Positions 8,711 through 22,663 of a stretch of DNA of 64,000 nt are shown here, in pieces; the stretch's first letter is position 1, and each line of letters starts with the position of its first letter. The stretch is from a phage, in the sequence record PZ445527.1. One strand, 5' to 3'. A program made the translations under genes and the position numbers. The notes under the pieces are model-generated. The model was not told where the DNA came from and did not search any database. It worked only from the letters and a program-made list of their open reading frames with translations.

Positions 8711-9463
8711 TTATCCAACTAGTGGTTCTAGCTCTAAGTCACAGAAGTTATACACTTCTAGTTTAAGGTTATTGATACCATCGAATTTATTAACTAATTC
8801 ATGAGTAATATATTTTGCAGGAATACCACTTTCAGATGGATGATCTGATTTAATAGTGAACTTCTGCTCAGCGGGCACTACATTTACTAGTAAAGAATCC
8901 ATATCTAAATGGTTTGTTTCTCTGAGTAACTCTCCTTCATTGGGGAATCTCACATCTGTTATTACGGCGACATCTGGGTCGTCTTTAGCGATGGATTGCT
9001 CCAGAATTATGAGCCAAATGCGTTCATGTACTAGCTGCCTTCCTAGCTCTGTTCCTACGAGCTGTAACATTTTTCTCGGAGAAATAAATAAACTATAAAG
9101 TCCATCTTCTTTATTCTCTGAGATAAGTTGTTGAGGATTAAGATATTTTTCCTCAAAAATAGGCCAAACGTACGAGAAGTCCTCAAACTTATCGATACCA
9201 TATTTAAACCATACGTCTCTAGCTCGCTCCAATTGATATTGTGTGACCGTAAACCATTGGTCAATCTCTTTCCCCCTGCGCTCTCCTAGAAACTCTGGAG
9301 TTACCCCGAGGATTACGGATGCAAGCTCATAAACTGGTTTAGCAAAACTGTAACGACGTGGTAAACACGTTGGATACGTGTCATTACACCAATCGATAAT
9401 TAATTTTGCAACGGTATCTTTTCCTGCACCTGCCTCGCCATGTAAACCTACTAATACTGACAT
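8711..9463 (-). CDS. deoxynucleoside monophosphate kinase
   Basis: 250 aa; P-loop GEAGAGKDT at N-terminus; size and sequence as T5 dNMP kinase. Confidence 0.8.
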   Translation of the reverse strand: MSVLVGLHGEAGAGKDTVAKLIIDWCNDTYPTCLPRRYSFAKPVYELASVILGVTPEFLGERRGKEIDQWFTVTQYQLERARDVWFKYGIDKFEDFSYVWPIFEEKYLNPQQLISENKEDGLYSLFISPRKMLQLVGTELGRQLVHERIWLIILEQSIAKDDPDVAVITDVRFPNEGELLRETNHLDMDSLLVNVVPAEQKFTIKSDHPSESGIPAKYITHELVNKFDGINNLKLEVYNFCDLELEPLVG

Positions 9464-9816
9464 TAATCTTTCCTATTGTTAATGGGTGGATAGTAAATTA
9501 AGCAACGTTTTTCTTGTAAATCTTGGCGATAGAAGCAAACCATACTAGTCAATCGTGAGATATATGAATATTCTGCCTCCCGACATTTTGCTAACATATT
9601 CCAATCTTTATATGGTACAACAACTACTACACCATCTTCGCCATTTGTAGCTAATTTCTTTTCGAATTTGAAATCAAAGCTACAAGGCTGAAGTCCTTTA
9701 GGCCAATCTACATGAGCTGTTGGTAGCTCATGTGTAGGTTCTGGCTTTACTTCTTGTGCACAGCCTGTGATTGTGATTGCGGCTGTGAGCAGTATTCCAC
9801 ACTTCCAGTTAAACAT
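9463..9816 (-). CDS. lipoprotein (candidate o-spanin)
   Basis: Signal peptide with lipobox ITGC; start embedded in the 3-prime end of the upstream TM/coiled-coil ORF. Confidence 0.5.
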   Translation of the reverse strand: MFNWKCGILLTAAITITGCAQEVKPEPTHELPTAHVDWPKGLQPCSFDFKFEKKLATNGEDGVVVVVPYKDWNMLAKCREAEYSYISRLTSMVCFYRQDLQEKRCLIYYPPINNRKD

Positions 9817-10190
9817 GCTAATCTTTCCTCGAACTCCTTACTCTGCTTTTTAGCAATTAATGTAACCAATCCAGGCTTTGCAGCTATAATATCTTGACGA
9901 CTAAGTGCTTTATCAAGCTGGGAGATCTTCTTATCAAGATCTTGTTGGGAAATATTATGGAAAGTGAAATATTGATTCATACGTGTTTCACGTTGTTCAC
10001 TTTCAACTTTAATCTTGTTTAAGGAAGTTTCTAGAGTAGAGATCTTTTTAGTAGCTACTGCAAGATCACCTGATAGAGTCTCAACCTTATTAACTAAGTG
10101 ATAAGCACCGAATCCGATGCCTATCGCTAGACCTGCTCCCAGGATATACCATTTACCTTGCCATAGAGAACTAATAAAGTTTTTTATCAT
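9747..10190 (-). CDS. TM plus coiled-coil protein (candidate i-spanin)
   Basis: N-terminal TM helix WYILGAGLAIGIGFGAY followed by coiled-coil-like region; overlaps downstream lipoprotein gene by 70 nt. Confidence 0.5.
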   Translation of the reverse strand: MIKNFISSLWQGKWYILGAGLAIGIGFGAYHLVNKVETLSGDLAVATKKISTLETSLNKIKVESEQRETRMNQYFTFHNISQQDLDKKISQLDKALSRQDIIAAKPGLVTLIAKKQSKEFEERLACLTGSVEYCSQPQSQSQAVHKK

Positions 10191-10867
10191 CTTTTCATAT
10201 TCCTGAATGACGTAACCGTATCAAATCCATGTGCTGCTAGGCGGTCTTTATCAGAAGTGGTAATAATATCTGGTTCTCCTGTTCCAAGTACACCCCAAAT
10301 ATACTGCTCGATTCTTTGGTGCAGCCGATATAGGTTAGGTTCCACACTCTGCCACGGAATACCTGATAGGTGTAGACGCGGATTAGTTATAACCTTGAAG
10401 TATTTATTGTTATCTTTATCATTTGGAACTAATGAATCTAGAACTGCTAACGGTACTCTTAACTCAGTTAAGGCTTCTTCAGCTTTGGGGGTAACTTCTT
10501 CTTGCCATGCTAAGATAGACTCTTTTGGCTTCCCCCTATTTATGTCTAGCAAAGAAAACCCTGTTGACCATCCCTTCTCCTCCAAAATTTCTAACGCCTC
10601 GTCCAAACTGAAGGTTTTTACTTGGGTATCCAGTACATCAATGTGGTATAACCAGTAAATCTCCCCAGCTAGGAAGAAAGGCAAAATTTTAAAGTAGCCA
10701 ATCTTTCCCTCAATACGAGCAATCCTACGTTCTTGCATGATCATATAGTTGTCATCATCTGGGGCTTTTATTGTTAGCTCTTCAGTTTTACGTTCCCAAA
10801 CGCGATCGGGGTCGAACAAACTGTTCTGCAAATCATACACATCTACGAATTTAGAGATGATTCTCAT
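10187..10867 (-). CDS. hypothetical protein
   Basis: 226 aa ORF downstream of promoter 10899..10927. Confidence 0.55.
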   Translation of the reverse strand: MRIISKFVDVYDLQNSLFDPDRVWERKTEELTIKAPDDDNYMIMQERRIARIEGKIGYFKILPFFLAGEIYWLYHIDVLDTQVKTFSLDEALEILEEKGWSTGFSLLDINRGKPKESILAWQEEVTPKAEEALTELRVPLAVLDSLVPNDKDNNKYFKVITNPRLHLSGIPWQSVEPNLYRLHQRIEQYIWGVLGTGEPDIITTSDKDRLAAHGFDTVTSFRNMKR

Positions 10868-10898
10868 ATTTAATCCTCTTGCCTCAATCTATGAATAT

Positions 10899-10927
10899 AT
10901 TATACAAAAGTTTGGGCATCTATGCAA
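10899..10927 (-). promoter_or_regulatory. sigma70-type promoter
   Basis: TTGCAT, 17 nt spacer, TATAAT. Confidence 0.6.
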
Positions 10928-10940
10928 CTAAAATTTTATT

Positions 10941-10977
10941 ACAAAAATAGCCCAGTCGCAAAAGTGCAGGCTGGGCT
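10941..10977 (-). terminator. rho-independent terminator
   Basis: Hairpin AGCCCAG...CTGGGCT followed by ATTTTTGT on minus strand. Confidence 0.55.
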
Positions 10978-11021
10978 TTGTCATTATTTGCTTTTGCTAG
11001 TAAGTTGACTTAGTGTCAATC

Positions 11022-11402
11022 TTATGTAATATTAGTTTCTCTAGCTTTGCGTAGTACCCCTGCATTTCTCCATAACTTAATATCGTCTACTGTTTCTTTA
11101 TAAGGAGCTATGGTAAAACCTAGTGGGCCAGCACTAAATAATCCTAAGAATCCTATTGCACGCATATAGAATAAACATTCTTCGCCTGTCATTTCTTCAA
11201 CTGCTTTTCTTTGTTTTTCGTTTTCAAACTCGTGATCCTTGTTGTCTATACGAAGGTGTTTAATGAACCATTCAGCAGAATATTCATCTAAGTGTCTAAG
11301 TATGGCTACTGCATACCCAGCACCAATTAAAAACCAAGTGGTAACAAGAATTAATACTATAGTCATATCATCTCCAGTTAAGGTCAGCGACCAACTCACC
11401 AC
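11022..11402 (-). CDS. membrane protein
   Basis: 126 aa with two or more hydrophobic helices. Confidence 0.5.
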   Translation of the reverse strand: MVSWSLTLTGDDMTIVLILVTTWFLIGAGYAVAILRHLDEYSAEWFIKHLRIDNKDHEFENEKQRKAVEEMTGEECLFYMRAIGFLGLFSAGPLGFTIAPYKETVDDIKLWRNAGVLRKARETNIT

Positions 11403-11476
11403 TTACCGCACTAAGGGGCACGACTCCCTTATCCGTAACAGTTGCAGGTGACGCAACTCGGTCCTACGCGAGTTCT

Positions 11477-11761
11477 TTAAGTATTCTGCATTTCTGCTTT
11501 AAATTTTCTCATATTACGGGTTTTTCGGTAATAGAAAAATACAGATGTTGGGCCTAAAAGAATGTCTATAATAAATATTGCAGATCTAGCACACCTGAGC
11601 AACGTTTTATCATCAAGAGGTGCTAGGTCTGATGGACGTGTTTTATGTACAACATATAAGATCACATCTTTATTCTTGGAGATGAATAAATCATCTATTA
11701 GACTATAAATAGCAACCACAGAGCCGATGACGAACCAAAGAGCAAATGGAGAAACAATCAT
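11477..11761 (-). CDS. small membrane protein
   Basis: 94 aa, hydrophobic N-terminal half. Confidence 0.5.
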   Translation of the reverse strand: MIVSPFALWFVIGSVVAIYSLIDDLFISKNKDVILYVVHKTRPSDLAPLDDKTLLRCARSAIFIIDILLGPTSVFFYYRKTRNMRKFKAEMQNT

Positions 11762-12054
11762 TTCAGATCCTTTTCATTAATTAAAATATTTGTAAATAAT
11801 GGAGTATTTCCTAAACTCATAGTAGGTCCAAATGTTTTCATAGCTACCCATAACTGCATAGTAATCATGCCATCTTTAATTTCTGGATCTTTATACTCCT
11901 CGATACGTTTTTTAGCAAAGGCAACTACATCTGGAGTGCTGCCATTCTTTATAACATGATCATGCCAAAATTGTGCATCCTCACTACGCAGGAATGTTAA
12001 GATGTCCTTAGTTGCTGGAATCTGCACTGTGCTATTGATGTTTAGCTTTTTCAC
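11758..12054 (-). CDS. hypothetical protein
   Basis: 98 aa ORF, stop/start overlap with neighbours. Confidence 0.5.
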   Translation of the reverse strand: MKKLNINSTVQIPATKDILTFLRSEDAQFWHDHVIKNGSTPDVVAFAKKRIEEYKDPEIKDGMITMQLWVAMKTFGPTMSLGNTPLFTNILINEKDLK

Positions 12055-12451
12055 GTTCTTCTCTCCGACGTTTGCATTCTTTCATCATATGAGCTGCTAC
12101 TACTTCATGGTAGTAGTCATTAATGTTATCTTCTGGCAAGAAATGCTTAATAGTCTCTAGCTGACAAATAACTCGATGAAGATGATTATTTGGTAGACAC
12201 AATTTCATACCTGCAACAAATCCAGAGAAGCCTGGAACACTGAACATGGGTTGGGCTTCTACTCTACCTTCAGAGTTGATATTAAGCTCAATTGAGATAC
12301 CCATTTTCATGCTATAAAGCTGGCAGTATTCCCCATTACCAGATCTTGACCAAATAGTGAAGTCTTCATCAATTTGATCTTGGATTTCTGTAATTGCAAA
12401 TTTAATTCTAGGATCTAAATTATTCATCTTCACCTTCAAAGTCGCAATCAT
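12032..12451 (-). CDS. hypothetical protein
   Basis: 139 aa ORF. Confidence 0.5.
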   Translation of the reverse strand: MIATLKVKMNNLDPRIKFAITEIQDQIDEDFTIWSRSGNGEYCQLYSMKMGISIELNINSEGRVEAQPMFSVPGFSGFVAGMKLCLPNNHLHRVICQLETIKHFLPEDNINDYYHEVVAAHMMKECKRRREEREKAKHQ

Positions 12452-12722
12452 AACGACAAGTAAAAGAACTAGAGCTATTAGTACGTTGAGTAGTTATCTC
12501 ACCGCGTTTGCTAATGGTAATAGCTGGTGTAGAGAAATTTTTGTTAGTGTATACCTCTACTTTACCATTACGTTCCCTAACATCACGAACTTTACCATAC
12601 TCGGTAATAATACCATTCTGTTGTACCCTAACATTCCCATTTTTCATAAAAACTTTGGTAGATGCTAGAGAACCGAAACTAACTGCTGAAACCATCAGTG
12701 CAATAATAAACTTATTCATCAT
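12420..12722 (-). CDS. secreted small protein
   Basis: ORF 12420..12830; start placed at MMNKFIIALMVSAVSFGSLAST signal-peptide Met, which overlaps the upstream stop (ATGATGAATAA). Confidence 0.5.
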   Translation of the reverse strand: MMNKFIIALMVSAVSFGSLASTKVFMKNGNVRVQQNGIITEYGKVRDVRERNGKVEVYTNKNFSTPAITISKRGEITTQRTNSSSSFTCRYDCDFEGEDE

Positions 12723-12993
12723 GGTCTTCCTCATTGCAGTCACGGCATACATCATAATCATTGAAGGAATGTTCGTGGGCTTCACACCACCAAGAACAAG
12801 AATCACAGAGGAATATTTCGGTTTTCTCAAGTGCTTGGCCTAAAAGATCATCAGCTTCCTCAGCAGTAATCTTCAATCCACATACATCTGCCACACGTTC
12901 TTTAATTAAGCGACCTGCCTCATGGTAAGACATACAGGTTCCAACAACACTATGCTCGACAACGTGAATAGCACAGTCTAGACGAGTTTTCAT
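12712..12993 (-). CDS. cysteine-rich small protein
   Basis: 93 aa with multiple Cys pairs (CDSCSWWC, CRDC); RBS GAGAGAGG downstream of promoter 13024..13052. Confidence 0.55.
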   Translation of the reverse strand: MKTRLDCAIHVVEHSVVGTCMSYHEAGRLIKERVADVCGLKITAEEADDLLGQALEKTEIFLCDSCSWWCEAHEHSFNDYDVCRDCNEEDHDE

Positions 12994-13023
12994 TTCAAAC
13001 CTCTCTCATCAATTTATAAATAT

Positions 13024-13052
13024 ATTATAACAAGAAAAGAGAGGTTTAGCAA
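13024..13052 (-). promoter_or_regulatory. sigma70-type promoter
   Basis: TTGCTA, 17 nt spacer, TATAAT, leader ATATTTATAAATTGATGAGAGAGG. Confidence 0.65.
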
Positions 13053-13069
13053 ATGAATTATTTCAGAAA

Positions 13070-13417
13070 TTAGTCGTAGCACCACCATAACCCACGCTTA
13101 CGCATGTCATGATCGCGATTATAGTCGTAATTTTCTGGATCTTTCATCACGCGGTGGAGTTCTTGACGATTCCCTTGACGAACCATTTTATTAGAATGCC
13201 ACTTAACATTCTTACTAATGGAATTCCAGTTATAACCATCCTTTTTCTCATTACGAATGGTTGCTTCCTTCATTTCTTTTTTGATGTCGTCCCAGGATTT
13301 AGCATAAGTAACACGAATCCAGTAGCCATTTTCTTTTAGGAAAGAATATTCTTGAGAGAATTGTTCTTTAGACTTCCACCACTGATCACCAGATTGTTTA
13401 CGATAAGTACGGCTCAT
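13070..13417 (-). CDS. hypothetical protein
   Basis: 115 aa, Trp/Lys-rich. Confidence 0.55.
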   Translation of the reverse strand: MSRTYRKQSGDQWWKSKEQFSQEYSFLKENGYWIRVTYAKSWDDIKKEMKEATIRNEKKDGYNWNSISKNVKWHSNKMVRQGNRQELHRVMKDPENYDYNRDHDMRKRGLWWCYD

Positions 13418-13493
13418 ATTACCTCCATTAAGTCTTTTAAACTAACCTAATGTGGATGAATTTTGTTATACATATATTATGTACCTTTATACA

Positions 13494-13527
13494 GAAAAAC
13501 CCCAGACTACTTATTCAATAGCTGGGG
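13494..13527 (-). terminator. rho-independent terminator
   Basis: Hairpin CCCCAG...CTGGGG followed by TTTTT on minus strand. Confidence 0.6.
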
Positions 13528-13538
13528 TTTGTTATTAA

Positions 13539-13850
13539 TCACAGATCGGGGCGCTTATCTTCTAAACAGTCCGAGCTAATATCTTCTCCGAATCCTACGA
13601 AGCCATCAAATTCATTTGAAATATCCGTAATCATTGCTTCCATTTTCCTAATCTCCGAGGTTTTCATCCCTGCTTTACTATTCTTAAAGTGTTTGCGAGG
13701 ATTCCCGCACATCCAACAAGAACAGATACAAGGAGTAGTAGTGATAATACCTAACCGTTTAGGGCTTTCTTCATGCGGGAAGACTGTCCAATATTTCTTG
13801 CGGTTGTTCTTCACACGTTGCCGGTGATGACGTCTTAATGCTCGATCCAC
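13539..13850 (-). CDS. hypothetical protein with Cys cluster
   Basis: 103 aa; TPCICSCWMCG cysteine cluster; followed by hairpin terminator. Confidence 0.5.
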   Translation of the reverse strand: MDRALRRHHRQRVKNNRKKYWTVFPHEESPKRLGIITTTPCICSCWMCGNPRKHFKNSKAGMKTSEIRKMEAMITDISNEFDGFVGFGEDISSDCLEDKRPDL

Positions 13851-13931
13851 ACATTTCTCCTAAAACTTGGGAGATAAATGGAGTTTGCTCGACTACCTTA
13901 CGTAGTTCGTAGAAACCGTATCCAAGCCCCA

Positions 13932-14300
13932 TTACATCGCCTGAGTAAATGTACGACTAATAACGTCGTTCTGCTGTTCACGCGTCAGTGCGTTAAAACG
14001 CACAGCATAACCAGAAACACGAATGGTTAGCTGAGGATATTTTTCAGGATGTTTCTGAGCATCCAAAAGCTGGTCACGACTTAACACATTGACATTTAGG
14101 TGTTGACCCCCTTCAATTTGAGGGGCGACTTCCACCTTGACTTCACGAAAGGATTCGGGGTCAAAGTGAGGTGTGATACCTTCTAGATCCTCAACTAGAA
14201 CTTTTTGTTTAAGTTCACCATCTTTAGAGTATAATTGAATAATCTGATTATTATGAACAATATTAATTACGCCAGATTTAAGATTTTGATATGCTTTCAT
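13932..14300 (-). CDS. grcA: autonomous glycyl radical cofactor (GrcA/YfiD-like)
   Basis: 122 aa; C-terminus [30 protein letters not shown] carries the glycyl-radical motif RVSGYAV and aligns by eye with E. coli GrcA. Confidence 0.8.
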
Positions 14301-14669
14301 TAGATCTCCCTGATGTTAGAATTTGGCTCAGCTTTTTGTTAACCCAGAAGCAAGATAAAAACTGGAAGGCAGGCTTGCTTTTCTCTTAACCACTAGGCTA
14401 CTTTTGGGTGCTAGCATTCCGGTGAGATTGATGGTCTCGGTTAAGAAGAAAAACACGGGACTTCTGTTTTAACGTCGTGCTCCCGGATTGATGCGACTAC
14501 GTGATTGCTCGCGCTAAGACAATGGCTATCTAAAGTCTTAGCTTCTACATTTATACTCCTGGATAGCATGGAGTTGCAGTCTACTTCCTGCTGTCACGCC
14601 CGGTCATTTATAGAATGTGGACTCTCTTCTCAGCAAGTTCTGGCACTATGGCCTGATCTTCTGTTTGGT

Positions 14670-14745
14670 AGTTAGTAGTGGAATCGAACCAGGTTCCACG
14701 GTTTACAAGACCGTTGCATCGCCAGCAATGCTTTAAGAGCTATCG
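14670..14745 (-). tRNA. tRNA-like element or fragment (anticodon-like loop CTTGTAA, TGT)
   Basis: T-loop GGTTCGATTCC and 3-prime ACCA present with a good anticodon stem-loop, but no pairing 5-prime acceptor strand found; abuts the 3-prime end of the HNH ORF. Confidence 0.3.
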
Positions 14746-15132
14746 TTGTCTTGTTGAAACTCTATTTCTGGCCCTATGCGTAGAGGTCATAGAGTGGCAG
14801 TTAGGGCAGAGAATCTTTAGATTTTCTGGAGAACAGTTAGTTGCATCTCCATCTATATGATCTACCTCAGTTAAAACTGCTCCGTCAATTGGATGTTTCC
14901 CATCCCAACCACATACTTCACAAGCAGTACCACGAGTATCCCACAGCCACTTCCTAACAAAAGGTTTTAATTGTGCAGCTTTACCAGTATAACCAGGTTC
15001 TTCACCTGCCAGCCACTTTAATACTTTTTGCTTTGTCTGGTACTCCTGCTGACAAGCAGGACCACAATACTTACCTGCGGAACCTCTACTTTTAGGTTTT
15101 GTGATTCCGCAATTTAAACAAGTAAACTCCAT
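14740..15132 (-). CDS. HNH endonuclease
   Basis: 130 aa; EVDHIDGDATNCSPENLKILCPNCH HNH motif plus N-terminal Cys pairs. Confidence 0.75.
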   Translation of the reverse strand: MEFTCLNCGITKPKSRGSAGKYCGPACQQEYQTKQKVLKWLAGEEPGYTGKAAQLKPFVRKWLWDTRGTACEVCGWDGKHPIDGAVLTEVDHIDGDATNCSPENLKILCPNCHSMTSTHRARNRVSTRQR

Positions 15133-15296
15133 GTTGCTTCCTATTTCAACGGGATTTCTTTTTCAATAACAAGGGCTTATCAGTCATAACTGTCATTGCC
15201 ATTTGTTGTAGAAATTCAAAGGTGAAGGCTACACGTTCTTCACCAATCTCTACTTCTACACGTTTCTTTTGTTTGTCAACCTTTAATTTTAGGCTA

Positions 15297-15518
15297 TCAG
15301 CCATCTTCGGATTCTCGTTGCTCGGCTACTGCTAGCCAGTCTGGTAAAAGAAACTTAGTACGAAACTCTTCATACGTTTCTTCTGGATAAAAGCTAAAAC
15401 CCCCTTTCTCATCATTCAAGATAACAGAGCCGTCAGTTTGTTCATATGCTCGATATGTTTCTCCAATAATGATAACTCGCTTATCAGTACTTTTATTACG
15501 AAACTCAAAAACGTGCAT
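15297..15518 (-). CDS. hypothetical protein
   Basis: 73 aa ORF within the tRNA region. Confidence 0.45.
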   Translation of the reverse strand: MHVFEFRNKSTDKRVIIIGETYRAYEQTDGSVILNDEKGGFSFYPEETYEEFRTKFLLPDWLAVAEQRESEDG

Positions 15519-15534
15519 AACGTTTCCTTAAAGT

Positions 15535-15610
15535 TGGAGCGGCTAGAGGGAATCGAACCCTACTCAGCGAGGCTTGGAAGGCCTGCGACACAACCCGTGT
15601 GCTTAACCGC
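15535..15610 (-). tRNA. tRNA-Gly (anticodon TCC)
   Basis: Manual fold: acceptor GCGGTTA/TAGCCGC, anticodon loop CTTCCAA, T-loop TTCGATT, encoded CCA. Confidence 0.7.
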
Positions 15611-15618
15611 TTATTGTT

Positions 15619-15692
15619 TGGCAGGGGATATTGGATTTGAACCAATGATCTCGACTTCAAAGGCCGTTGTGCTAACCGTTACACTACTCTCC
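15619..15692 (-). tRNA. tRNA, possibly Gln (anticodon TTG)
   Basis: T-arm ATTGG-TTCAAAT-CCAAT, anticodon loop CTTTGAA, encoded CCA; acceptor stem pairs imperfectly so boundaries and isotype are uncertain. Confidence 0.45.
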
Positions 15693-15784
15693 AATTGTTT
15701 GGCTGGAGTGCCTGATTCAATCCCAGGCACCTTCGGAGTCAGAGGCCGACGACTTGACAATTGATCTACACCTCAAGAATACTA

Positions 15785-16021
15785 TTAACTAGATGCTGGT
15801 TCTGCTGGCTGAGATACAGCAGGCTGTTCTAATGTATCTGGTGCTGATACAGAGAAAAGAGCTTGTAATGCTGCAATATCACGCTCGTAAGTTTCAATAC
15901 GAGTAGTAAGAGTATCTACCATCTGTTTATGATAGGCTAAGTTATTCTGAGATTCATCTCGAAGGGTTTGCAGTTCTGCAAGACGTGTTAACATAATTTC
16001 ACTAATTAAAGCATTACTCAT
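15785..16021 (-). CDS. hypothetical protein
   Basis: 78 aa ORF, helical heptad-like character. Confidence 0.45.
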   Translation of the reverse strand: MSNALISEIMLTRLAELQTLRDESQNNLAYHKQMVDTLTTRIETYERDIAALQALFSVSAPDTLEQPAVSQPAEPASS

Positions 16022-16211
16022 TTGTTTCTCCTAAATTTTCCGGTTCTTCTAAACGTTTGCCTTCATGATCTACTCGAATAACTCCGCATCCTTCGCAAAT
16101 CACAACTGCACCATAACCTTCTTTGACTTCAGCTTCTGTAATCAAACCAGAAAGATCACCAGTATCTCTGCCCCACATATCAATGGAGCATTGTTTGCAG
16201 AAATCAGCCAT
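16014..16211 (-). CDS. small zinc-ribbon-like protein
   Basis: 65 aa with CKQC and CEGC pairs. Confidence 0.45.
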   Translation of the reverse strand: MADFCKQCSIDMWGRDTGDLSGLITEAEVKEGYGAVVICEGCGVIRVDHEGKRLEEPENLGETNE

Positions 16212-16236
16212 ATTTTATTTCCTATTTAAGTTAATT

Positions 16237-16313
16237 TGGGGTGGCTAGTGGAACTCGAATCCACATAGGCCTGATTCACAATCAGGATCATTAACCAATT
16301 ATGATATAGCCAC
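16237..16313 (-). tRNA. tRNA-His (anticodon GTG)
   Basis: Manual fold: acceptor GTGGCTA/TAGCCAC, D-stem TCAT/ATGA, anticodon stem CCTGA/TCAGG with loop TTGTGAA, T-arm GTGGA-TTCGAGT-TCCAC, CCA encoded. Confidence 0.8.
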
Positions 16314-16534
16314 AATTGAAAACTCGCAGGGTTAGCGAAACCATCCTCAATTAGCATGTTCTAGAATACTAATCAAGTTATCTCCTATTGCACGCAGCTC
16401 AAGACGAGTACGAATTTTCAATTGTGGCGGCTCTCAGAAACTCTTCTATTCTAGCCTCAGAAGCTTACCCCCGAACGCATGTCGGGAAAGTCTTTCCAAG
16501 CGCATCAAATAGCACCGTTACACTTTGAGCCATT

Positions 16535-16610
16535 GATGTATCAAGGAATAGAAGGACTTGAACCTTCATGAGTTAGACCATTTAACTCAACCGCTTTTTA
16601 GGGTATATTT
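16535..16610 (-). tRNA. tRNA-like element (unresolved)
   Basis: Perfect T-arm GAAGG-TTCAAGT-CCTTC on minus strand but acceptor and anticodon arms could not be paired by eye. Confidence 0.25.
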
Positions 16611-16679
16611 CTAGGAGTGGATGTTCCTAGTAAACCTATTCGGCAGTCCCGTCTACCAATTCCGGCATATTCCAAGATT

Positions 16680-16774
16680 TGGAGGTAGGTAAGGGGATCG
16701 AACCATTACACCGTATCACTACGGTCAACCGATTTCAAGTCGGAGTCCATCGCCAGCCGTTGGATTGACCTACC
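16680..16774 (-). tRNA. tRNA-Ser (anticodon TGA), class II
   Basis: Acceptor GGTAGGT/ACCTACC perfect, anticodon loop CTTGAAA, long variable arm, CCA encoded. Confidence 0.75.
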
Positions 16775-16786
16775 TTATAAATTGTT

Positions 16787-16871
16787 TGGTGGGTTAGGAG
16801 AGACTCGAACTCTCACGCACTTAAGCAAGGGCTTCTAAGACCCTCGTGGCTACCAATTACACCACTAACCC
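16787..16871 (-). tRNA. tRNA-Leu (anticodon TAG), class II
   Basis: Acceptor GGGTTAG/CTAACCC, anticodon stem AGGGT/GCCCT with loop CTTAGAA, long variable arm, T-arm GAGAG-TTCGAGT-CTCTC, CCA. Confidence 0.75.
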
Positions 16872-16877
16872 CTAATT

Positions 16878-16952
16878 TGGTGGACAGTAGGAGAGTCGAA
16901 CTCCTCACTCCTGAGTGCAAGTCAGGTATTTTCCCAGATAAACTAACCGCCC
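16878..16952 (-). tRNA. tRNA-Ala (anticodon TGC)
   Basis: Acceptor GGGCGGT with G3-U70 wobble, anticodon stem CCTGA/TCAGG with loop CTTGCAC, T-arm AGGAG-TTCGACT-CTCCT, CCA. Confidence 0.75.
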
Positions 16953-17191
16953 AAATTCTTTAATTTACTAAGGCTATTAGCTCGGCGTAACTACAGCACC
17001 TTCGCTTCAAGCGGAAGGAACCGCGTCATCTCGCAAACCCAATACACTATTCAGTTGCCGCTGAATCTAGTGGACTAATCTAGAACTTCTCCCGAGTCGT
17101 AGGGATCGTGCTTTTTGGCAGCCAGTCCTAGGTCGAGCTAATACCTTAGTGAATTATGATGAGGATTTCTCCCATATCAATTTATATAAAT

Positions 17192-17220
17192 ATTATAACA
17201 AGAAATTAATCATCAAGCAA
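17192..17220 (-). promoter_or_regulatory. sigma70-type promoter upstream of non-coding leader and tRNA-Ala/Leu/Ser
   Basis: TTGCTT, 17 nt spacer, TATAAT, then conserved leader ATATTTATATAAATTGA. Confidence 0.65.
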
Positions 17221-17321
17221 TTGAGTTTTTCTTGAAATTGGTAGCGGGTTCCAGTACTGCCCTGGACTTACTTAGCTTATGAGACTAAGAAGAACTCTAT
17301 GCCTTCCACCCGCAATTGTTT

Positions 17322-17400
17322 GGTTATTCTAGACAGGATTCGAACCTGTTATCACTTGTGCGGACTTACGAGAACCATTCTTTCACTCGAATCGAACGAG
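17322..17400 (-). tRNA. tRNA-like element (unresolved)
   Basis: Perfect T-arm ACAGG-TTCGAAT-CCTGT followed by ACCA; remaining arms not confidently paired. Confidence 0.3.
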
Positions 17401-17567
17401 CTTCTGCCCTAGCCAAGCTGGTTTCCCCATCAACCACGCTAGAATGTTTGATTGTTTTCAGTGCAAGAGTCCGAGTCTTGGACACGACCGTTTCGCAAGT
17501 ACATAGGCAGCTTATCATGAGTCAGCACTTCCGAATTGCTAGCCCCGTGTTCTGCACTGAAATTTTA

Positions 17568-17915
17568 TTAGTTTAACCGTAAAGTATTATCTAATTCACC
17601 ATTAATTGTTCGGCATTCCTCTGGAATTGCTGGTGTGGCCTTGTATTCCCACCACTCAGCACCATCATATTCCCCACGTTCTAGCCAAGTTCCGTCGGCA
17701 AACCATACATTACCATAAAGTAATTGTCCACCGTATCCAGAATCATACTCAAAGTCTAGGTTATCAAGAAAATCCTCAATATCTTCTTCTGTATAGCCTA
17801 AAGGTAATACCCAAACTTTTTTATCCCCATAATACCCGAATTCTATTTTAATACACTTAATTTTAGAATTGGTATTTTTTAAGGCAAGTAACAACTCTTC
17901 TTTAGCATTACGCAT
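17568..17915 (-). CDS. hypothetical protein
   Basis: 115 aa ORF between tRNA groups. Confidence 0.5.
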   Translation of the reverse strand: MRNAKEELLLALKNTNSKIKCIKIEFGYYGDKKVWVLPLGYTEEDIEDFLDNLDFEYDSGYGGQLLYGNVWFADGTWLERGEYDGAEWWEYKATPAIPEECRTINGELDNTLRLN

Positions 17916-17940
17916 AGTATATTCTCATACTGAATTAATT

Positions 17941-18017
17941 TGGCGCGACTGATGGGATTTGAACCCACATTCCCTCCCGTGATAGGGGAGTACCATTACC
18001 AAGCCAGCCACGGTCGC
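17941..18017 (-). tRNA. tRNA with unusual anticodon loop CTATCAC (anticodon ATC, isotype uncertain)
   Basis: Acceptor GCGACCG/CAGTCGC, anticodon stem CTCCC/GGGAG, T-arm GTGGG-TTCAAAT-CCCAT, CCA encoded. Confidence 0.6.
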
Positions 18018-18026
18018 ATAATTTAT

Positions 18027-18212
18027 TTACTCAGCTTTGAGTTTTTCAATAGCTGCATTAAGTTCTTTAAGAAACTCTTTTCGTACATTAAGACGATTGA
18101 GACTTACTAGTATATCATGTTTAAGTTCTTCGATGTATTTCTTCTCAACTTCAATATTGTTGATAGTGCTATCACGATGAACTTCTAGCTGCGCAATCAC
18201 ATTCTTGGACAT
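18027..18212 (-). CDS. hypothetical protein
   Basis: 61 aa ORF, charged helical. Confidence 0.4.
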   Translation of the reverse strand: MSKNVIAQLEVHRDSTINNIEVEKKYIEELKHDILVSLNRLNVRKEFLKELNAAIEKLKAE

Positions 18213-18314
18213 GCTTGTTTCCTCAGTTATTAATGAAAATGGTATCTGTGGCTGAATTAGATGTCAGCAATGATAGCTGGTTGGCTACCGGTTTACTTAA
18301 CTCTACACAGAATT

Positions 18315-18397
18315 TGGCGGGCCGTGTAGGATTCGAACCTACGTTGTCTTTCGACACGGATTAACAATCCGCCGCCAAACCGCTTGGCTAACGACCC
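18315..18397 (-). tRNA. tRNA-Asn-like (anticodon GTT) with extended variable arm
   Basis: Acceptor GGGTCGT/ACGGCCC, D-stem GCCA/TGGC, anticodon stem GCGGA/TCCGT loop TTGTTAA, 13-nt variable hairpin, T-arm GTAGG-TTCGAAT-CCTAC, CCA. Confidence 0.6.
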
Positions 18398-18552
18398 TAA
18401 AAAATTTATATTGCTGACTAGGGTTTTCACCTAGACGGAGTTAGCACCGTAGCGTGTAGCGGCATACCTCTCCAAACCGTGCCTCATCTTTCAATTACGG
18501 AGACAGTGTTCCTACGCGTGCCTGAATTGATTTAACAATTCTTTCAGCAAAT

Positions 18553-18628
18553 TGGACGACCGCATGAGGATTGAACTCACATAAAAAGGATTTGCAATCC
18601 TTCGCCTAAGCCATTCAGCCAACGGTCG
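18553..18628 (-). tRNA. tRNA-Cys (anticodon GCA)
   Basis: Acceptor CGACCGT/GCGGTCG, anticodon stem AAGGA/TCCTT loop TTGCAAA, T-arm GTGAG-TTCAATC-CTCAT, CCA. Confidence 0.75.
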
Positions 18629-18806
18629 ATTTATCTTGTTTTTCGAGATCTTCAAACTCTAAATCATTGAAGTTCCCTAGAGTACGGGTATAGAACCCAT
18701 CCCCTGCGTCATAGCCTGATTTACCACAATCACACATTTTAAATTCGCGCAGGTGTGTGAAAACATGTTCAGAACCACAACACTTAAATCTAACTAATCG
18801 TTTCAT
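18615..18806 (-). CDS. small Cys-containing protein
   Basis: 63 aa; CCGSEH and CDCG motifs; 3-prime end overlaps tRNA-Cys by about 14 nt; promoter at 18835..18863. Confidence 0.4.
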   Translation of the reverse strand: MKRLVRFKCCGSEHVFTHLREFKMCDCGKSGYDAGDGFYTRTLGNFNDLEFEDLEKQDKSTVG

Positions 18807-18834
18807 TAGCTTCTCCAGTTCAATTTATGTAATT

Positions 18835-18863
18835 ATTATATAGAACTTTTGGGAACTAAGCAA
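18835..18863 (-). promoter_or_regulatory. sigma70-type promoter
   Basis: TTGCTT, 17 nt spacer, TATAAT. Confidence 0.6.
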
Positions 18864-19145
18864 CTACATTTTTTAAGAATTTGATGCCTTTCTTTTTCTT
18901 CTTATATTTCCACGTTAATGGATTCTGTCGATTATGAACGCTTGAGATCTTTGTCTCGTCAAAGTTCTTCAATATCATGTAATCACAAGATAATTGTTCT
19001 AGTGGAATGTGATCACCGTCAAAAGCGTATACATAAGGCTGTTGACTAGCACGATAATGATAGACTTTGTTAATTCTACGTTTCAGCGACTTATCCGCGC
19101 AGTAAATAAAGAAGTTTTAAGGGTGCATCAGCATCTCCTTCAATT

Positions 19146-19229
19146 TGGTGCATCGTGCTGGATTTGAACCACCAACCCCGAAGGGCACGGATTTACAGAC
19201 CGCTGCAATAGCCATTCTGCCAACGATGC
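19146..19229 (-). tRNA. tRNA-Tyr (anticodon GTA), class II
   Basis: Acceptor GCATCGT/ACGATGC, D-stem GCAG/TTGC, anticodon stem GCGGT/TCCGT loop CTGTAAA, long variable arm, CCA. Confidence 0.8.
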
Positions 19230-19357
19230 ACATTTAAAAGTATTCAAATACTAGTTTAAACACTTTTAAATATGTTTCCAAATTAGATAACTATTATACC
19301 AAGTTTTAAGGCACTGAGCAAGTCAGATTTTGAAGAACTTGCTCAGTGCTGTATTAG

Positions 19358-19642
19358 TTAGTCGAACTTAGGAGTGACAGATAAGGAGAACGGAAGTTCA
19401 AAAACTTCTTCACCCTCATTACTAACGGTAACTACACGACCTTTAAGTTCAGACATTAAAATATCAATATCAGCTTTTGCATCTGGAGCCATGCCAGCTT
19501 CAATACATTTAGCTTTAACTTCCGGTAAAAGCTCTACGTTATAGAGATAGAGCCACTCAATCTCACCTTCCCAGTCTTCCCAGTCTTCCCAGGATTTGCA
19601 GATTGCACTTTCAATACCAGTTGCTACAACACGATTTTGCAT
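19358..19642 (-). CDS. hypothetical acidic protein
   Basis: 94 aa with WEDWEDWEGEIEW repeat; promoter 19673..19702 upstream. Confidence 0.5.
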   Translation of the reverse strand: MQNRVVATGIESAICKSWEDWEDWEGEIEWLYLYNVELLPEVKAKCIEAGMAPDAKADIDILMSELKGRVVTVSNEGEEVFELPFSLSVTPKFD

Positions 19643-19672
19643 TCGTTAACTCCTTCATCAATTTATATAACT

Positions 19673-19702
19673 ATTATACCAGAAATTTAAAGCAAAAGGC
19701 AA
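19673..19702 (-). promoter_or_regulatory. sigma70-type promoter
   Basis: TATAAT with TTGCCT 18 nt upstream. Confidence 0.5.
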
Positions 19703-19732
19703 GTACATTTTTAAAAATTCTGTTTGGAGGAG

Positions 19733-19939
19733 CTAAACTCCAGATTCTTCTGCCAAGTCTAGACTAATAAGAGTTATAGCCATAATTGCTGCACCGTGTT
19801 CTTTTTCTCCGGTGTTTTTAGCAGAGTCTATAATATCCTTAATCTGTTCGTAATAACTTTTTACTTCTTGTTCAATGCCTGCCTCGGCTATCATGCCTTT
19901 AGTCATGAGTCGTTGCATGGTAATTTCAGTATTAGCCAT
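19733..19939 (-). CDS. hypothetical protein
   Basis: 68 aa ORF. Confidence 0.45.
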   Translation of the reverse strand: MANTEITMQRLMTKGMIAEAGIEQEVKSYYEQIKDIIDSAKNTGEKEHGAAIMAITLISLDLAEESGV

Positions 19940-20114
19940 GTTGTTTCTCCAGTTTCATTTTTAATAGTTTACAAATGAAATCAACGTCTTCATCCGTGCC
20001 TAGATCTCTATCTTCAAGGGTTGCCTTGAAATTTTTTGTTAGTTCCATAAGAATAACTTCCCTGGAACGACGTGTTGGCGGGGGTGGATGTCTATACATC
20101 TTATTTCCTTAATT

Positions 20115-20189
20115 TGGTGGGTCGGAGGAGAATCTAACTCCTACTCGTTAGCTTATGAGGCCACCGCTTTAACTTTAAGCTACCGACCC
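20115..20189 (-). tRNA. tRNA-Met or Ile2 (anticodon CAT)
   Basis: Acceptor GGGTCGG/CCGACCC perfect, D-stem GCTT/AAGC, anticodon loop CTCATAA, T-arm AGGAG-TTAGATT-CTCCT, CCA. Confidence 0.75.
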
Positions 20190-20195
20190 TATGTT

Positions 20196-20284
20196 TGGCG
20201 GAAGAAGTGGGAATCGAACCCACAAGGCTATATTTCAAACCGACAGATTAGCAATCTGCTGCAATACCGTTATGCTATTCTTCC
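20196..20284 (-). tRNA. tRNA-Ser (anticodon GCT), class II
   Basis: Acceptor GGAAGAA/TTCTTCC, anticodon stem GCAGA/TCTGT loop TTGCTAA, long variable arm, T-arm GTGGG-TTCGATT-CCCAC, CCA. Confidence 0.8.
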
Positions 20285-20298
20285 GAATTTATAAATAT

Positions 20299-20327
20299 AT
20301 TATATTAGAAATTTAGCTTCATAGCAA
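20299..20327 (-). promoter_or_regulatory. sigma70-type promoter directly upstream of tRNA-Ser(GCT)/tRNA-Met
   Basis: TTGCTA, 17 nt spacer, TATAAT, with the tRNA 5-prime end about 15 nt downstream. Confidence 0.65.
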
Positions 20328-20823
20328 GAAAATTTTTCAAGTTTTCGGTAGACATCTCATCCACATCTACAGGAGAAACAAATCCATTTAATTGTCTAGC
20401 AAATTTTTTACCAGCAGGATCATTATCCCCAACAGCTACCAATTTAAAAGGTAGTAATTTCAATTGCTTTAATAGCGCTTTTCCTGGAGAAGAACCCAAC
20501 ATTGCCAAGGCTGGATAACCAGCGTTATGTAACGCAACTGCCTTAAATACAGATTCAGCAATCAATACCACTTTTTCATCTCCATTGAGAGTTTCTAGTC
20601 CCCATACACACTGTGTAGTAGAATAAGTAAAATATCTAGCTTCAAAGGGGCACTTACCATGACCTTTTGGAGCAGAAGGATTATAAGTCTGATAGCCTCT
20701 CAACATCCCAGAGAAGTCATACAATGGGACTGTTAGCCATCCTTCCGGGCTTAACCAGCAATGATATTTATCTGTATCAAACCCTCTAGATAAGAGATGT
20801 TCTGTTAGTTCATCAACAGTCAT
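20305..20823 (-). CDS. hypothetical protein (possible Toprim-like fold)
   Basis: 172 aa; VAVGDNDPAGKKF resembles a DxD Toprim motif, assignment tentative. Confidence 0.5.
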   Translation of the reverse strand: MTVDELTEHLLSRGFDTDKYHCWLSPEGWLTVPLYDFSGMLRGYQTYNPSAPKGHGKCPFEARYFTYSTTQCVWGLETLNGDEKVVLIAESVFKAVALHNAGYPALAMLGSSPGKALLKQLKLLPFKLVAVGDNDPAGKKFARQLNGFVSPVDVDEMSTENLKNFLAMKLNF

Positions 20824-20860
20824 ATTTGATCCCCTAGTTAGTTGTATAAATACATTATAC

Positions 20861-20894
20861 AGAAAAGCCCTGCGCTCTCCAGTGAACGCAGGGC
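20861..20894 (-). terminator. rho-independent terminator
   Basis: Stem GCCCTGCG...CGCAGGGC followed by T-run on minus strand, after SPFH gene stop. Confidence 0.55.
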
Positions 20895-20919
20895 TTACTT
20901 CGAATATTACGTGTGGGTA

Positions 20920-21867
20920 TTACTTGTTACGCATATCCATAATCATTTGGCCATCGTAACCAGTGCCAACCACAGTCTGCGGTACACCACCTTGATACTT
21001 CTGAGCACGAATCATTTCAACTTCTAGTTGCTTCCAGCGAATCATCTCAGGAGTAATGGTACGTTGCAGAGCGGCGTTAGCTTCAGCTTCTTTCTTAGCT
21101 GCGTACAGTTTAGCATCTGCATCACGTTCGTTTGCAATAGCTTGGTTGTTACGAGCTTCACGATCTGCTTCTGCTTGTTTAACCTTCTGCTGTGCTTCTT
21201 GTTCAACACGAGCCAACTCAGCTTTCGCAGCATTAACTTGTTCTTCACGAACTTTGGTATTCTGTACCTGTTCCATGATTACAGGCGGCAAAGTAATATC
21301 CTGAAGGAACACTTGCTTAACTGTGTAACCATAAGGGCGTGCATACTCTTCAACTTCCTGTTGAATTGCAGTTTGCAATTGAGCCTGAATTTTAGCATCA
21401 AACAAATCTTGTGCTTTAGGTACAGACTTACCAAACTCACGAATAGTAGACAGTAATTTTTCAGTTACATACTTGTCTAGTGCCTGATCCTGAGTACCTG
21501 CATTAATACGGTTAATCGGTGCCTTAGAACCATCAAACTGCAACATAACAGTCAGGTCAACAGTGGATTTAAACTTATCCTGACTAGGAACCTGAAGTTT
21601 ATCTAATTTTACAGCAATATCTTTTGTACTGAAAGTATCGAAAGATGCAAACGGGTTTACAATATGGAAACCAGGTAATACTGGATTAGGGTCTACTTTA
21701 CCAAGAAATGTTTGGGTTTTAACCGTACCATCAGAAACAATAGTATATGAATTAAAAGCTAGGATTAAACCTGCTAAACCAACTACAGCACCAATACCCC
21801 AACGTTTAATAGTACGGATTACTTTCTGCTCAGAAGTCAGTTCTTTCATATTTTTAGTAGCAAACAT
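20920..21867 (-). CDS. SPFH/band-7 (HflK/C, stomatin-like) domain protein
   Basis: 315 aa; N-terminal TM helix, SPFH-like core, long Ala/Gln/Glu-rich coiled-coil C-terminus. Confidence 0.65.
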   Translation of the reverse strand: MFATKNMKELTSEQKVIRTIKRWGIGAVVGLAGLILAFNSYTIVSDGTVKTQTFLGKVDPNPVLPGFHIVNPFASFDTFSTKDIAVKLDKLQVPSQDKFKSTVDLTVMLQFDGSKAPINRINAGTQDQALDKYVTEKLLSTIREFGKSVPKAQDLFDAKIQAQLQTAIQQEVEEYARPYGYTVKQVFLQDITLPPVIMEQVQNTKVREEQVNAAKAELARVEQEAQQKVKQAEADREARNNQAIANERDADAKLYAAKKEAEANAALQRTITPEMIRWKQLEVEMIRAQKYQGGVPQTVVGTGYDGQMIMDMRNK

Positions 21868-21901
21868 ATATTTCCTTTGTTTTAGTTACAGTTAATAAAA
21901 T

Positions 21902-22552: not shown

Positions 22553-22626
22553 TGTTACTACATAAGTGATTTCCACACCCCACTATTTATAAATTAGAAA
22601 AGAATTACTCTCTAATTTATGAATAT

Positions 22627-22655: not shown

Positions 22656-22663
22656 ATGAATTT

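Follow-up and report, generated by a model that had tools for sequence, protein, structure and literature searches.

Results

The locus and its setting in the tRNA cluster

The stretch of phage DNA analysed here, 64,000 nt from sequence record PZ445527.1 (hereafter the window), contains the early-region tRNA cluster of a T5-like phage (Demerecviridae, Markadamsvirinae), with the genes of the cluster on the minus strand. When positions 13900-15800 and 9000-24000 were searched with megablast, several hundred T5-like phages of Salmonella and Escherichia matched at 85-95% identity, and no identical genome was found. Within the window ARAGORN called 12 tRNA genes, which all lie between 15.6 and 22 kb on the minus strand, and it made no call at 14670-14740; here an HNH endonuclease gene is followed by a grcA-like gene with no callable tRNA between them. 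A scan of 13800-16100 for promoters and terminators returned sites no more numerous than in shuffled sequence.

For comparison we fetched 27 IMG/VR loci around a conserved 73-aa neighbour gene, together with GenBank loci, and re-annotated all of them with ARAGORN and tblastn. In 28 distinct IMG/VR and GenBank relatives the fetched DNA spans the locus, and 27 of them share one gene order: the 73-aa ORF, a DUF7293 ORF, in some cases the HNH gene, tRNA-Thr(UGU), one or more ORFs, tRNA-Ile(GAU), tRNA-Met(CAU), in some cases a spacer, and the grcA-like gene. The distance from tRNA-Thr to tRNA-Met in these 27 is 526-1011 bp, so that tRNA-Met lies 0.5-1.0 kb downstream. Mosaic boundaries are common throughout this region. 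An intact tRNA-Thr is annotated in relatives at the orthologous locus, the place where an earlier, sequence-only reading of the window had suspected a damaged tRNA gene.

In the window, the minus strand from 14740 to 14666 reads GCTCTTAAAGCATTGCTGGCGATGCAACGGTCTTGTAAACCGTGGAACCTGGTTCGATTCCACTACTAACTACCA. The sequence-only reading had noticed a D-arm-like hairpin, a TGT anticodon stem-loop and a T loop with ACCA, and all three are indeed there. The D arm (GCAT/ATGC) is the same as in the functional-looking tRNA-Thr of phage HdH2, as is the anticodon arm, in which a perfect 5-bp stem (ACGGT/ACCGT) closes the 7-nt loop CTTGTAA with the anticodon TGT (UGU) at 14707-14705; a T loop (TTCGATT) and a terminal ACCA follow. 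The HNH ORF does adjoin this sequence as that reading stated, and is intact: the G of its TAG stop codon (14742-14740) is also nucleotide 1 of the tRNA-like sequence. The features of the locus are listed in Table 1.

Table 1. Coordinates of the features at the locus (positions in the window)
Feature	Position	Strand	Basis
Hybrid pseudo-tRNA, 75 nt, Thr(UGU) 5' part and Met(CAU) 3' end	14666..14740	-	Rfam, ARAGORN, MFE fold, parent alignments
Thr-derived nt 1-49: acceptor strand GCTCTTA, D arm, anticodon arm, variable region	14692..14740	-	Identity to HdH2
Junction: Met-type T (14691) and 11-nt identity GGTTCGATTCC	14680..14691	-	BLAST segment overlap; parent sequences
Last 14 nt ACTACTAACTACCA: Met 3' T-stem strand, 3' acceptor strand, discriminator, CCA	14666..14679	-	tRNA-Met of relatives
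HNH endonuclease gene, intact, free-standing, 130 aa	14740..15132	-	Pfam, PHROG, presence/absence in relatives
Left cassette junction: half-hairpin cccgttgaaata (15153-15142), then leader ggaagcaac (15141-15133)	15133..15153	-	Comparison of HNH carriers
Conserved structured non-coding spacer, 365 nt, before the grcA-like gene	14301..14665	-	Co-linear with tRNA-Met; covariation

An optional HNH cassette beside tRNA-Thr

The product of the HNH ORF matches two Pfam families (PF01844, 24.5 bits with a cut-off of 21.4; HNH_3 PF13392, 24.9 bits) and HNH families of PHROG (down to E=6e-18). It is 99.2% identical to the HdH2 endonuclease, with further matches at 60-73% to HNH proteins of Klebsiella, Pectobacterium and jumbo phages. 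At a tblastn identity of at least 98%, the protein was found only in HdH2, PMBT27, MET_P1-88, MET_P1_137_112 and three contig-level GenBank records; among the 27 IMG/VR loci, HdH2 alone has the gene.

The borders of the cassette are constant. On the left, all HNH carriers compared have the same junction, gaaata followed directly by ggaagcaacATG, which breaks a small hairpin in its loop. In HNH-less phages this hairpin is complete, cccgttgaaataacggg, and acgggNNNNNN and then the tRNA come next. The right junction is likewise identical among carriers, with the TAG stop overlapping tRNA nucleotide 1. In five other carriers of this HNH gene, namely HdH2, PMBT27, MET_P1-88, S.Hadar 4-5-1 and LM 4-14-1, ARAGORN calls an intact tRNA-Thr beside it (Rfam scores were obtained for two of these genes, those of HdH2 and LM 4-14-1). 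The HNH gene is therefore not the disruptor: of the earlier suggestion that it had inserted into or beside a tRNA gene and disrupted it, only the position beside the gene holds, since five other carriers keep tRNA-Thr intact and the damage in the window is on the 3' side. Judged by these comparisons, the HNH gene is an optional, free-standing cassette of putative homing type, which occupies a fixed site beside tRNA-Thr and occurs sporadically among syntenic T5-like phages.

Every HNH carrier examined has a tRNA-Thr allele with the anticodon stem ACGGT/ACCGT, and most HNH-less genomes have the allele GTTGC/GCATC. This pattern fits what would be expected if the enzyme had its target in tRNA-Thr and carriers were immune, or if flanking markers were co-converted with the cassette. 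The linkage is one-directional, because phagemcphageface and smaug are HNH-less and carry the ACGGT allele, and because TrudiRoth, which retains no more than 25 nt from the 3' end of the HNH gene, carries the GTTGC allele. These three phages weaken the case for target-site immunity that a strict link between the HNH gene and the ACGGT allele would have made.

The tRNA-like sequence joins the 5' part of tRNA-Thr to the 3' end of tRNA-Met

We aligned the tRNA-like sequence with the intact tRNA-Thr genes of relatives, as the sequence-only reading had proposed. Its nucleotides 1-49 are 100% identical to nucleotides 1-49 of the HdH2 gene, and divergence begins only after them, at the T arm, where HdH2 continues with GAACCGGGTTCGATTCCTGGTGGGAGCACCA and the window with GAACCTGGTTCGATTCCACTACTAACTACCA. 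In HdH2 the 5' acceptor strand GCTCTTA pairs with TGGGAGC; in the window the 3' strand is instead ACTAACT. A match up to nucleotide 49 followed by divergence implies that the 5' acceptor strand is native and that the 3' end has been replaced. What had been described as a 3' fragment of a tRNA without a 5' acceptor strand to pair with is thus the reverse. The acceptor stem does fail to form, as that reading saw, but GCTCTTA is present and is the native tRNA-Thr strand; the substituted part is the 3' end. The stretch in which a missing 5' half had been expected (15133-15304) is occupied by the conserved DUF7293 ORF (Pfam E=1e-29) and contains no tRNA-like match.

The replacing sequence comes from tRNA-Met. 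In HdH2, S124, GSW6 and nearly all other relatives, tRNA-Met ends in the same 14 nt as the hybrid. Beyond them the window continues (AACAGAAGATCAGGCCA and onwards) with the downstream flank of tRNA-Met, 98% identical to that of S124 over 91 nt and matching that of GSW6 as well. S124 and GSW6 are the closest relatives of this right-hand flank, and their tRNA-Met has the T loop TTCGATT in place of the usual form TTCAAAT. As a result of this T loop, the T arms of an S124/GSW6-type tRNA-Met and of tRNA-Thr have an 11-nt identity in common, GGTTCGATTCC (14690-14680 in the window). A 25-mer search, which matched only the normal tRNA-Met of S124, revealed this T-loop sequence common to the two genes.

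In pairwise BLAST comparisons with LM 4-14-1, S124, PMBT27, MET_P1-88 and HdH2, the window always aligned as two co-linear segments, and these overlap in the window at exactly 14680-14691. Where tRNA-Ile and tRNA-Met are adjacent in the relative, the segments are offset by about 528-532 bp, corresponding to a deletion of about 0.53 kb. Lost in this arrangement are the 3' end of tRNA-Thr, a promoter-like spacer, an ORF of 97 aa without a Pfam match, tRNA-Ile(GAU) and about 50 nt from the start of tRNA-Met. Neither the lost ORF, nor tRNA-Ile, nor the tRNA-Thr 3' end, nor the tRNA-Met 5' half has a copy elsewhere within the 64-kb window, which rules out relocation of these genes within it.

The switch from one parent to the other can be placed closely. 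Base 14691, a T directly 5' of the 11-nt identity, is of the Met type, which puts the switch at the 5' edge of the identity, between nucleotides 49 and 50 of the hybrid, and not strictly inside it. Alternatively, the switch may lie inside the identity and be accompanied by one extra G-to-T change. The edge position counts against the simplest model, which needs either a mismatched-end join or an additional substitution. With either placement the product is an in-register fusion of two T arms, presumably formed by recombination or annealing at short homology.

The hybrid is predicted to be a non-functional tRNA

The Rfam tRNA model (RF00005) aligns with the hybrid from end to end and scores 24.5 bits for 14670-14740 (E=0.025 in 1.5 kb), below its gathering score of 29 bits; the intact parents reach 49.5 and 51.7 bits (tRNA-Thr) and 51.5 bits (tRNA-Met). 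An intact tRNA, the outcome that would have spoken against a disrupted gene, is accordingly not what the covariance model recovers. The end-to-end alignment, together with orthology to the annotated tRNA genes of relatives, indicates that the tRNA-like sequence is not a product of chance.

Its defects lie in the acceptor and T stems. The Rfam alignment marks non-pairs in both, and by direct reading only two of seven acceptor positions (GCTCTTA against ACTAACT) can pair, one as a Watson-Crick pair and one as G-U, along with three of the five in the T stem (CCTGG against CCACT). The hybrid thus has a D arm and an anticodon arm with a 7-nt loop, and does not have the minihelix of a 7-bp acceptor and a 5-bp T stem. 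No compensatory changes that would restore either stem were seen in the hybrid. Its minimum free energy fold (-15 kcal/mol, z -0.39 against shuffled sequence) shows neither a cloverleaf nor an acceptor stem; the intact HdH2 tRNA-Thr folds as a cloverleaf at -26.5 kcal/mol. The Rfam score, the silence of ARAGORN and the folding rule out an intact but unusual tRNA.

These features suggest that the hybrid is a non-functional tRNA pseudogene, which RNase P should not process and which should be neither charged nor used in translation. From general tRNA biology, an RNA with no acceptor/T minihelix would be expected to be a non-substrate for RNase P, CCA maintenance, ThrRS and EF-Tu.

The junction is private to this genome

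An exact 26-mer across the junction was absent from IMG/VR, from JGI metagenome contigs and from GTDB genomes, and a degenerate pattern for a fusion of a UGU-anticodon tRNA to a Met 3' end in the same register was absent from IMG/VR. In INPHARED, the 40 junction-region matches listed are all split into two pieces about 0.7 kb apart; only two of the matches listed cover at least 80% of the junction-region query, and both of these are split. The junction is therefore known from a single genome, as a private allele.

At the same locus, an independent Thr/Met hybrid is present in Salmonella phage SP3 (MG387042.1; L023, 4409-4496), which has no HNH gene there. In it the 5' part of the 87-nt, long-variable-arm tRNA(UGU) variant is joined to tRNA-Met at a shared ATGCACCT, and the hybrid was found in contiguous form only in the two SP3 records.

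Neighbouring features

The 365-nt spacer that follows the hybrid is co-linear with tRNA-Met in rokbiter, S124, GSW6 and others; it lies outside the pseudogene and belongs to its context. Conserved copies of it, mostly without annotation, are present in 149 T5-like phage records; T5 and HdH2 lack it, and elsewhere other spacers take its place. It had no match in Rfam. RNAalifold gives a structure of 90 pairs, 98.2% paired across 10 diverse copies, in which 15 pairs show compensatory double changes, compared with 1-3 when the partners are slid by 1-3 columns; none of 500 shuffles reached the observed covariation. This spacer is potentially of more interest than the hybrid itself.

An event of the same kind has affected the tRNA-Gln(UUG) of the window, 0.9 kb away, where two alleles have recombined and the join lies in the anticodon loop. 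The tRNA-Gln(CUG) homologue next door is degenerate (20 bits). A tRNA-Gly(UCC)-like gene missed by ARAGORN is conserved, with compensatory changes relative to a Klebsiella phage.

Discussion

Origin of the hybrid

We consider it highly probable that this locus is a hybrid tRNA pseudogene, left when a deletion within the genome fused two tRNA genes of a T5-type cluster. The ancestor would have had, in order, the DUF7293 ORF, the HNH gene, tRNA-Thr(UGU), a small ORF, tRNA-Ile(GAU), tRNA-Met(CAU), the 365-nt spacer and the grcA-like gene, with a tRNA-Met of the S124/GSW6 type whose T arm shared the 11-nt identity with that of tRNA-Thr. Recombination or annealing at this identity would then have joined nucleotides 1-49 of tRNA-Thr to the last ~26 nt of tRNA-Met. 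Such a fusion would remove about 0.53 kb and leave a product that keeps the D and anticodon arms of tRNA-Thr and has mismatched acceptor and T stems, in a phage now without tRNA-Thr, tRNA-Ile(GAU), one CAU tRNA and the 97-aa ORF. In this sequence of events the HNH cassette would already have been settled directly upstream of tRNA-Thr, a bystander to the structural damage.

Several other explanations start from the same observations. If insertion of the HNH gene had split or truncated the tRNA gene, with the 5' acceptor strand removed or displaced, perhaps to a place upstream of HNH, one could understand why the HNH ORF ends on tRNA nucleotide 1 and why the acceptor stem is unpaired. However, the 5' strand GCTCTTA is in place, the same strand that pairs in HdH2; the same HNH gene abuts an intact tRNA-Thr through the same junction in five other phages; the upstream DNA at 15146-15304 is the conserved DUF7293 ORF and not half of a tRNA; and the part that deviates is the 3' end, which derives from tRNA-Met. 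We therefore regard this explanation as extremely unlikely. A split, permuted or intron-containing tRNA gene was rejected as well: no complementary half or intron was found in 14741-15520, where the Rfam tRNA model gave no tRNA-like match and which is occupied by the HNH, DUF7293 and PHROG 5598 ORFs. An artefact of assembly or library preparation would mean that the assembly software, or a PCR chimera, had linked the two T arms and that the real genome retains the order Thr-ORF-Ile-Met. It would account for a junction that falls in a short repeat and has no second occurrence in any collection searched. Against this stand the co-linear and clean flanks, the comparable natural hybrid in the deposited SP3 genome, and other signs of recombination and decay in the neighbouring tRNA genes of this phage. 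Moreover, the k-mer sizes used by assemblers are normally far above 11-12 nt, and we judge an artefact to be distinctly unlikely. Finally, the hybrid could be a functional tRNA-like RNA, for example a decoy for tRNA-targeting defence nucleases, or a signal in the processing of the HNH mRNA or of the structured RNA downstream. Its D and anticodon arms are intact and its anticodon loop is unchanged; the tRNAs of T5-like phages counter tRNA-cleaving defences (PMC11464382; PMC10644984); and loss of an RNase P substrate at the HNH stop could alter the fate of the HNH mRNA, an idea put forward for T5 endonucleases (PMC2330249). Yet the allele is private and shows no conservation, it folds no better than shuffled sequence, and neither stem has compensatory changes, which makes a function very improbable.

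A further question is whether the deletion was a by-product of HNH activity, through aberrant homing or repair. In one version, the HNH enzyme cut near tRNA-Thr, resection of the break reached tRNA-Met, and the T arms annealed in its repair; in another, the HNH cassette was copied into an HNH-less genome and its right-hand end was resolved in the wrong tRNA. The tract made up of the HNH cassette and tRNA-Thr nucleotides 1-49 is 98-100% identical to HdH2 and ends exactly at the junction, and its flanks differ in affinity, being L014/L027-like on the left and S124/GSW6-like on the right. The anticodon-stem allele common to all examined carriers would fit a target site within the tRNA-Thr gene, the T5 tRNA region has HNH endonucleases for which a site-specific, homing-type action is described (Akulenko 2004, as cited in PMC2330249 and PMC10644984), and for T6 it is proposed that the homing endonuclease SegB starts a microhomology-mediated rearrangement, a segmental amplification, in the tRNA cluster (PMC13096335). 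On the other hand, SP3 has a comparable Thr/Met hybrid with no HNH gene in cis, and deletions in one of seven HNH-carrying and one of ~26 HNH-less genomes do not differ significantly. The ACGGT allele also occurs in HNH-less phagemcphageface and smaug, and the HNH remnant of TrudiRoth is accompanied by the other allele; mosaic boundaries are found everywhere in the region. It is possible that the HNH nuclease supplied the initiating DNA break, and we hold a causal role for HNH activity to be a tentative and rather doubtful proposition. The same caution applies to the specific idea, on balance improbable, that the hybrid is a fossil of mis-resolved homing: while the HNH cassette was copied into an HNH-less genome, or once the enzyme had cut close to its own gene, the right-hand end would have been resected and would then have primed or annealed in the wrong tRNA gene, at the T-arm identity.

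Implications for annotation and for the tRNA repertoire

For annotation, the locus should be labelled as a tRNA pseudogene (Thr/Met hybrid), neither as tRNA-Thr nor as a tRNA split by HNH, and the phage should be scored as being without tRNA-Thr(UGU), tRNA-Ile(GAU) and one CAU tRNA. The absence of these tRNAs is relevant because the tRNAs of T5-type phages counter host defences that cleave tRNA (PMC11464382; PMC10644984). The deletion itself is private and probably neutral or mildly deleterious.

The position of the HNH stop codon may also matter for expression. RNase P cleavage at nucleotide 1 of an intact tRNA would cut within this stop codon, and control of this kind by tRNA processing has been proposed for T5 endonucleases (PMC2330249). 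The hybrid-bearing phage has probably lost the RNase P site at the HNH stop. If the deletion did arise from mis-resolved homing, this loss might de-repress the endonuclease, and gaining a selfish gene would have cost the phage three tRNA genes; were such events general, homing endonucleases would be a direct driver of the erosion and turnover of the tRNA repertoire in T5-like phages. An intact homing-type HNH gene at the edge of a deletion offers a concrete candidate case for endonuclease-triggered loss of tRNA genes. Taken together, the hybrid in the window, the SP3 hybrid and the recombinant tRNA-Gln support the view that conserved loops of clustered tRNA genes serve as crossover points, at which tRNA genes of T5-like phages are shuffled and deleted.

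Comparison with known systems

In laboratory hosts phages can do without their tRNA clusters, and these clusters readily suffer deletions between short repeats. Deletions in such clusters reportedly include the T4 tRNA deletions studied by Abelson and colleagues and the heat-stable deletion mutants of T5. Our search of the literature found nothing specific on hybrid tRNA genes at phage deletion junctions, or on structured RNA in the T5 family.

A close parallel is the SP3 hybrid, which involves the same two parent gene positions and the same tRNA-Met 3' end, is likewise private, and has also lost tRNA-Ile and ORFs. It differs from the hybrid in the window in its 5' parent, the long-variable-arm variant, in its crossover at ATGCACCT, which runs from the D stem to the anticodon stem, in keeping the Met anticodon, and in having no HNH gene.

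The HNH gene resembles the T5 HNH endonucleases (Akulenko 2004, as cited in PMC2330249, PMC10644984 and PMC3326045) in being a small free-standing HNH ORF between the tRNA genes of the cluster. It also resembles them in being sporadic among syntenic relatives and packed against a tRNA whose processing could affect the mRNA. It differs in that its best matches are HdH2-type proteins (99%) and the HNH proteins of Klebsiella, Pectobacterium and jumbo phages (60-73%), and its activity at a specific target site is putative. SegB, in the tRNA cluster of T4 and T6, is again a free-standing homing endonuclease within a phage tRNA cluster (PMC2330249; PMC13096335), and for T6 its cleavage, followed by microhomology recombination between a tRNA gene and a neighbour, has been proposed to rearrange the cluster (PMC13096335). 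SegB is however a GIY-YIG enzyme, and the outcome in T6 was a tandem amplification selected by a defence system, whereas in the window it was a deletion that destroyed three tRNA genes, with a possible role for the HNH enzyme. The locus is thus neither a new system nor a split tRNA, and the event is of a known kind: a short-repeat deletion in a dispensable phage tRNA cluster, beside a homing-type endonuclease.

A candidate structured RNA beside the hybrid tRNA

The non-coding stretch between the Thr/Met hybrid pseudo-tRNA and the grcA-like gene spans 365 nt and is conserved among T5-like phages: 149 phage records carry it at a coverage of at least 80%, and in most of these it is not annotated. 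By its behaviour it is an optional cassette, because T5 and the relative HdH2 lack it and other phages have a 274-nt spacer in its place.

The RNAalifold consensus of this spacer comprises 15 helices with 90 pairs and is 98.2% paired across 10 diverse copies. Compensatory double changes were found at 15 pairs of the consensus, as compared with 1–3 in slid controls, and none of 500 shuffles reached the observed value. In Yersinia phage phiR2-01, the tip of one helix is extended by an inserted hairpin of 38 nt. The G-U pairs of the predicted fold indicate that the minus strand would be the transcribed one. We were not able to find a match in Rfam at E≤10, and the spacer looks like an undescribed structured RNA.

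Positions of the features discussed, in the window and in relatives
Feature	Location	Strand	Remarks
365-nt non-coding spacer	window 14301-14665	minus	
tRNA-Gly(UCC)-like gene	window 15538-15611	minus	Rfam best match: tRNA-Sec model, 30.9 bits
tRNA-Gln(UUG), recombinant of two alleles	window 15619-15693	minus	called by ARAGORN
Degenerate tRNA-Gln(CUG) homologue	window 15703-15775	minus	Rfam 20 bits
87-nt tRNA, anticodon UGU	~4388-4474 in the IMG/VR loci		L010, L011, L013, L024, L026, L029, L044
SP3 hybrid pseudo-tRNA	L023 4409-4496		Salmonella phage SP3, MG387042.1; same locus as window hybrid
HNH homologue and neighbouring tRNAs	L035 1506-2062		Klebsiella phage vB_Kpn_B01
tRNA-Gly(UCC)-like homologue	L035 1984-2062		Klebsiella phage vB_Kpn_B01
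HNH remnant before tRNA-Thr	L047 880-925		Escherichia phage TrudiRoth
HNH-less locus with HNH-linked tRNA-Thr allele	L046 880-980		Salmonella phage phagemcphageface

The tRNA-Thr position and the HNH gene in relatives

Where others have tRNA-Thr, some T5-like phages carry an 87-nt tRNA with the anticodon UGU, whose long variable arm suggests a class II-like tRNA and whose 5' half is similar to that of the nearby tRNA-Met. It is the 5' part of this variant that is joined to tRNA-Met in the SP3 hybrid, at a common ATGCACCT, with deletion of tRNA-Ile and the ORFs. The SP3 locus has no HNH gene, and the only two records with a contiguous hybrid of this type are both SP3. The SP3 hybrid is independent of that in the window.

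An HNH homologue (73% protein identity) is present in vB_Kpn_B01, with tRNA-Thr(UGU) on one side and the tRNA-Gly(UCC)-like gene on the other, and its stop codon overlaps the start of the tRNA that follows, as in the window. The link of this HNH lineage to tRNA-Thr and to the 5' ends of tRNAs thus reaches another genus. In TrudiRoth only the last ~25 nt of the HNH ORF are left ahead of tRNA-Thr, marking where the HNH gene was lost. The HNH-linked anticodon-stem allele of tRNA-Thr is also found in phagemcphageface and smaug, both of which lack the HNH gene.

Atypical tRNA genes in the window

The tRNA-Gln(UUG) of the window is itself a recombinant of two alleles: nucleotides 1–37 are of the type seen in the relatives L019 and S124 and nucleotides 38–75 of the L014 type, meeting at a common CGGCCTTTGA in the anticodon loop. 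This join results in two extra mismatches in the acceptor stem and one in the anticodon stem; the gene scores 44.6 bits, versus 58.1 for that of HdH2. The neighbouring tRNA-Gln(CUG), which almost all relatives keep intact, has degenerated in the window, where ~12 substitutions disrupt the acceptor stem, the D stem and the T loop (GGATTGAATC instead of GGTTCGATCC), and ARAGORN did not call it there.

ARAGORN also made no call in the window for the tRNA-Gly(UCC)-like gene, whose D arm is atypical, with a stem of 5 bp and the loop CGGGT. Several relatives (L004, L014, L019) carry it with 100% identity, and each of its four arms shows compensatory changes when it is compared by eye with the vB_Kpn_B01 homologue. 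The gene probably encodes a genuine tRNA of unusual form, in place of the canonical allele of tRNA-Gly(UCC) that HdH2 and S124 carry.
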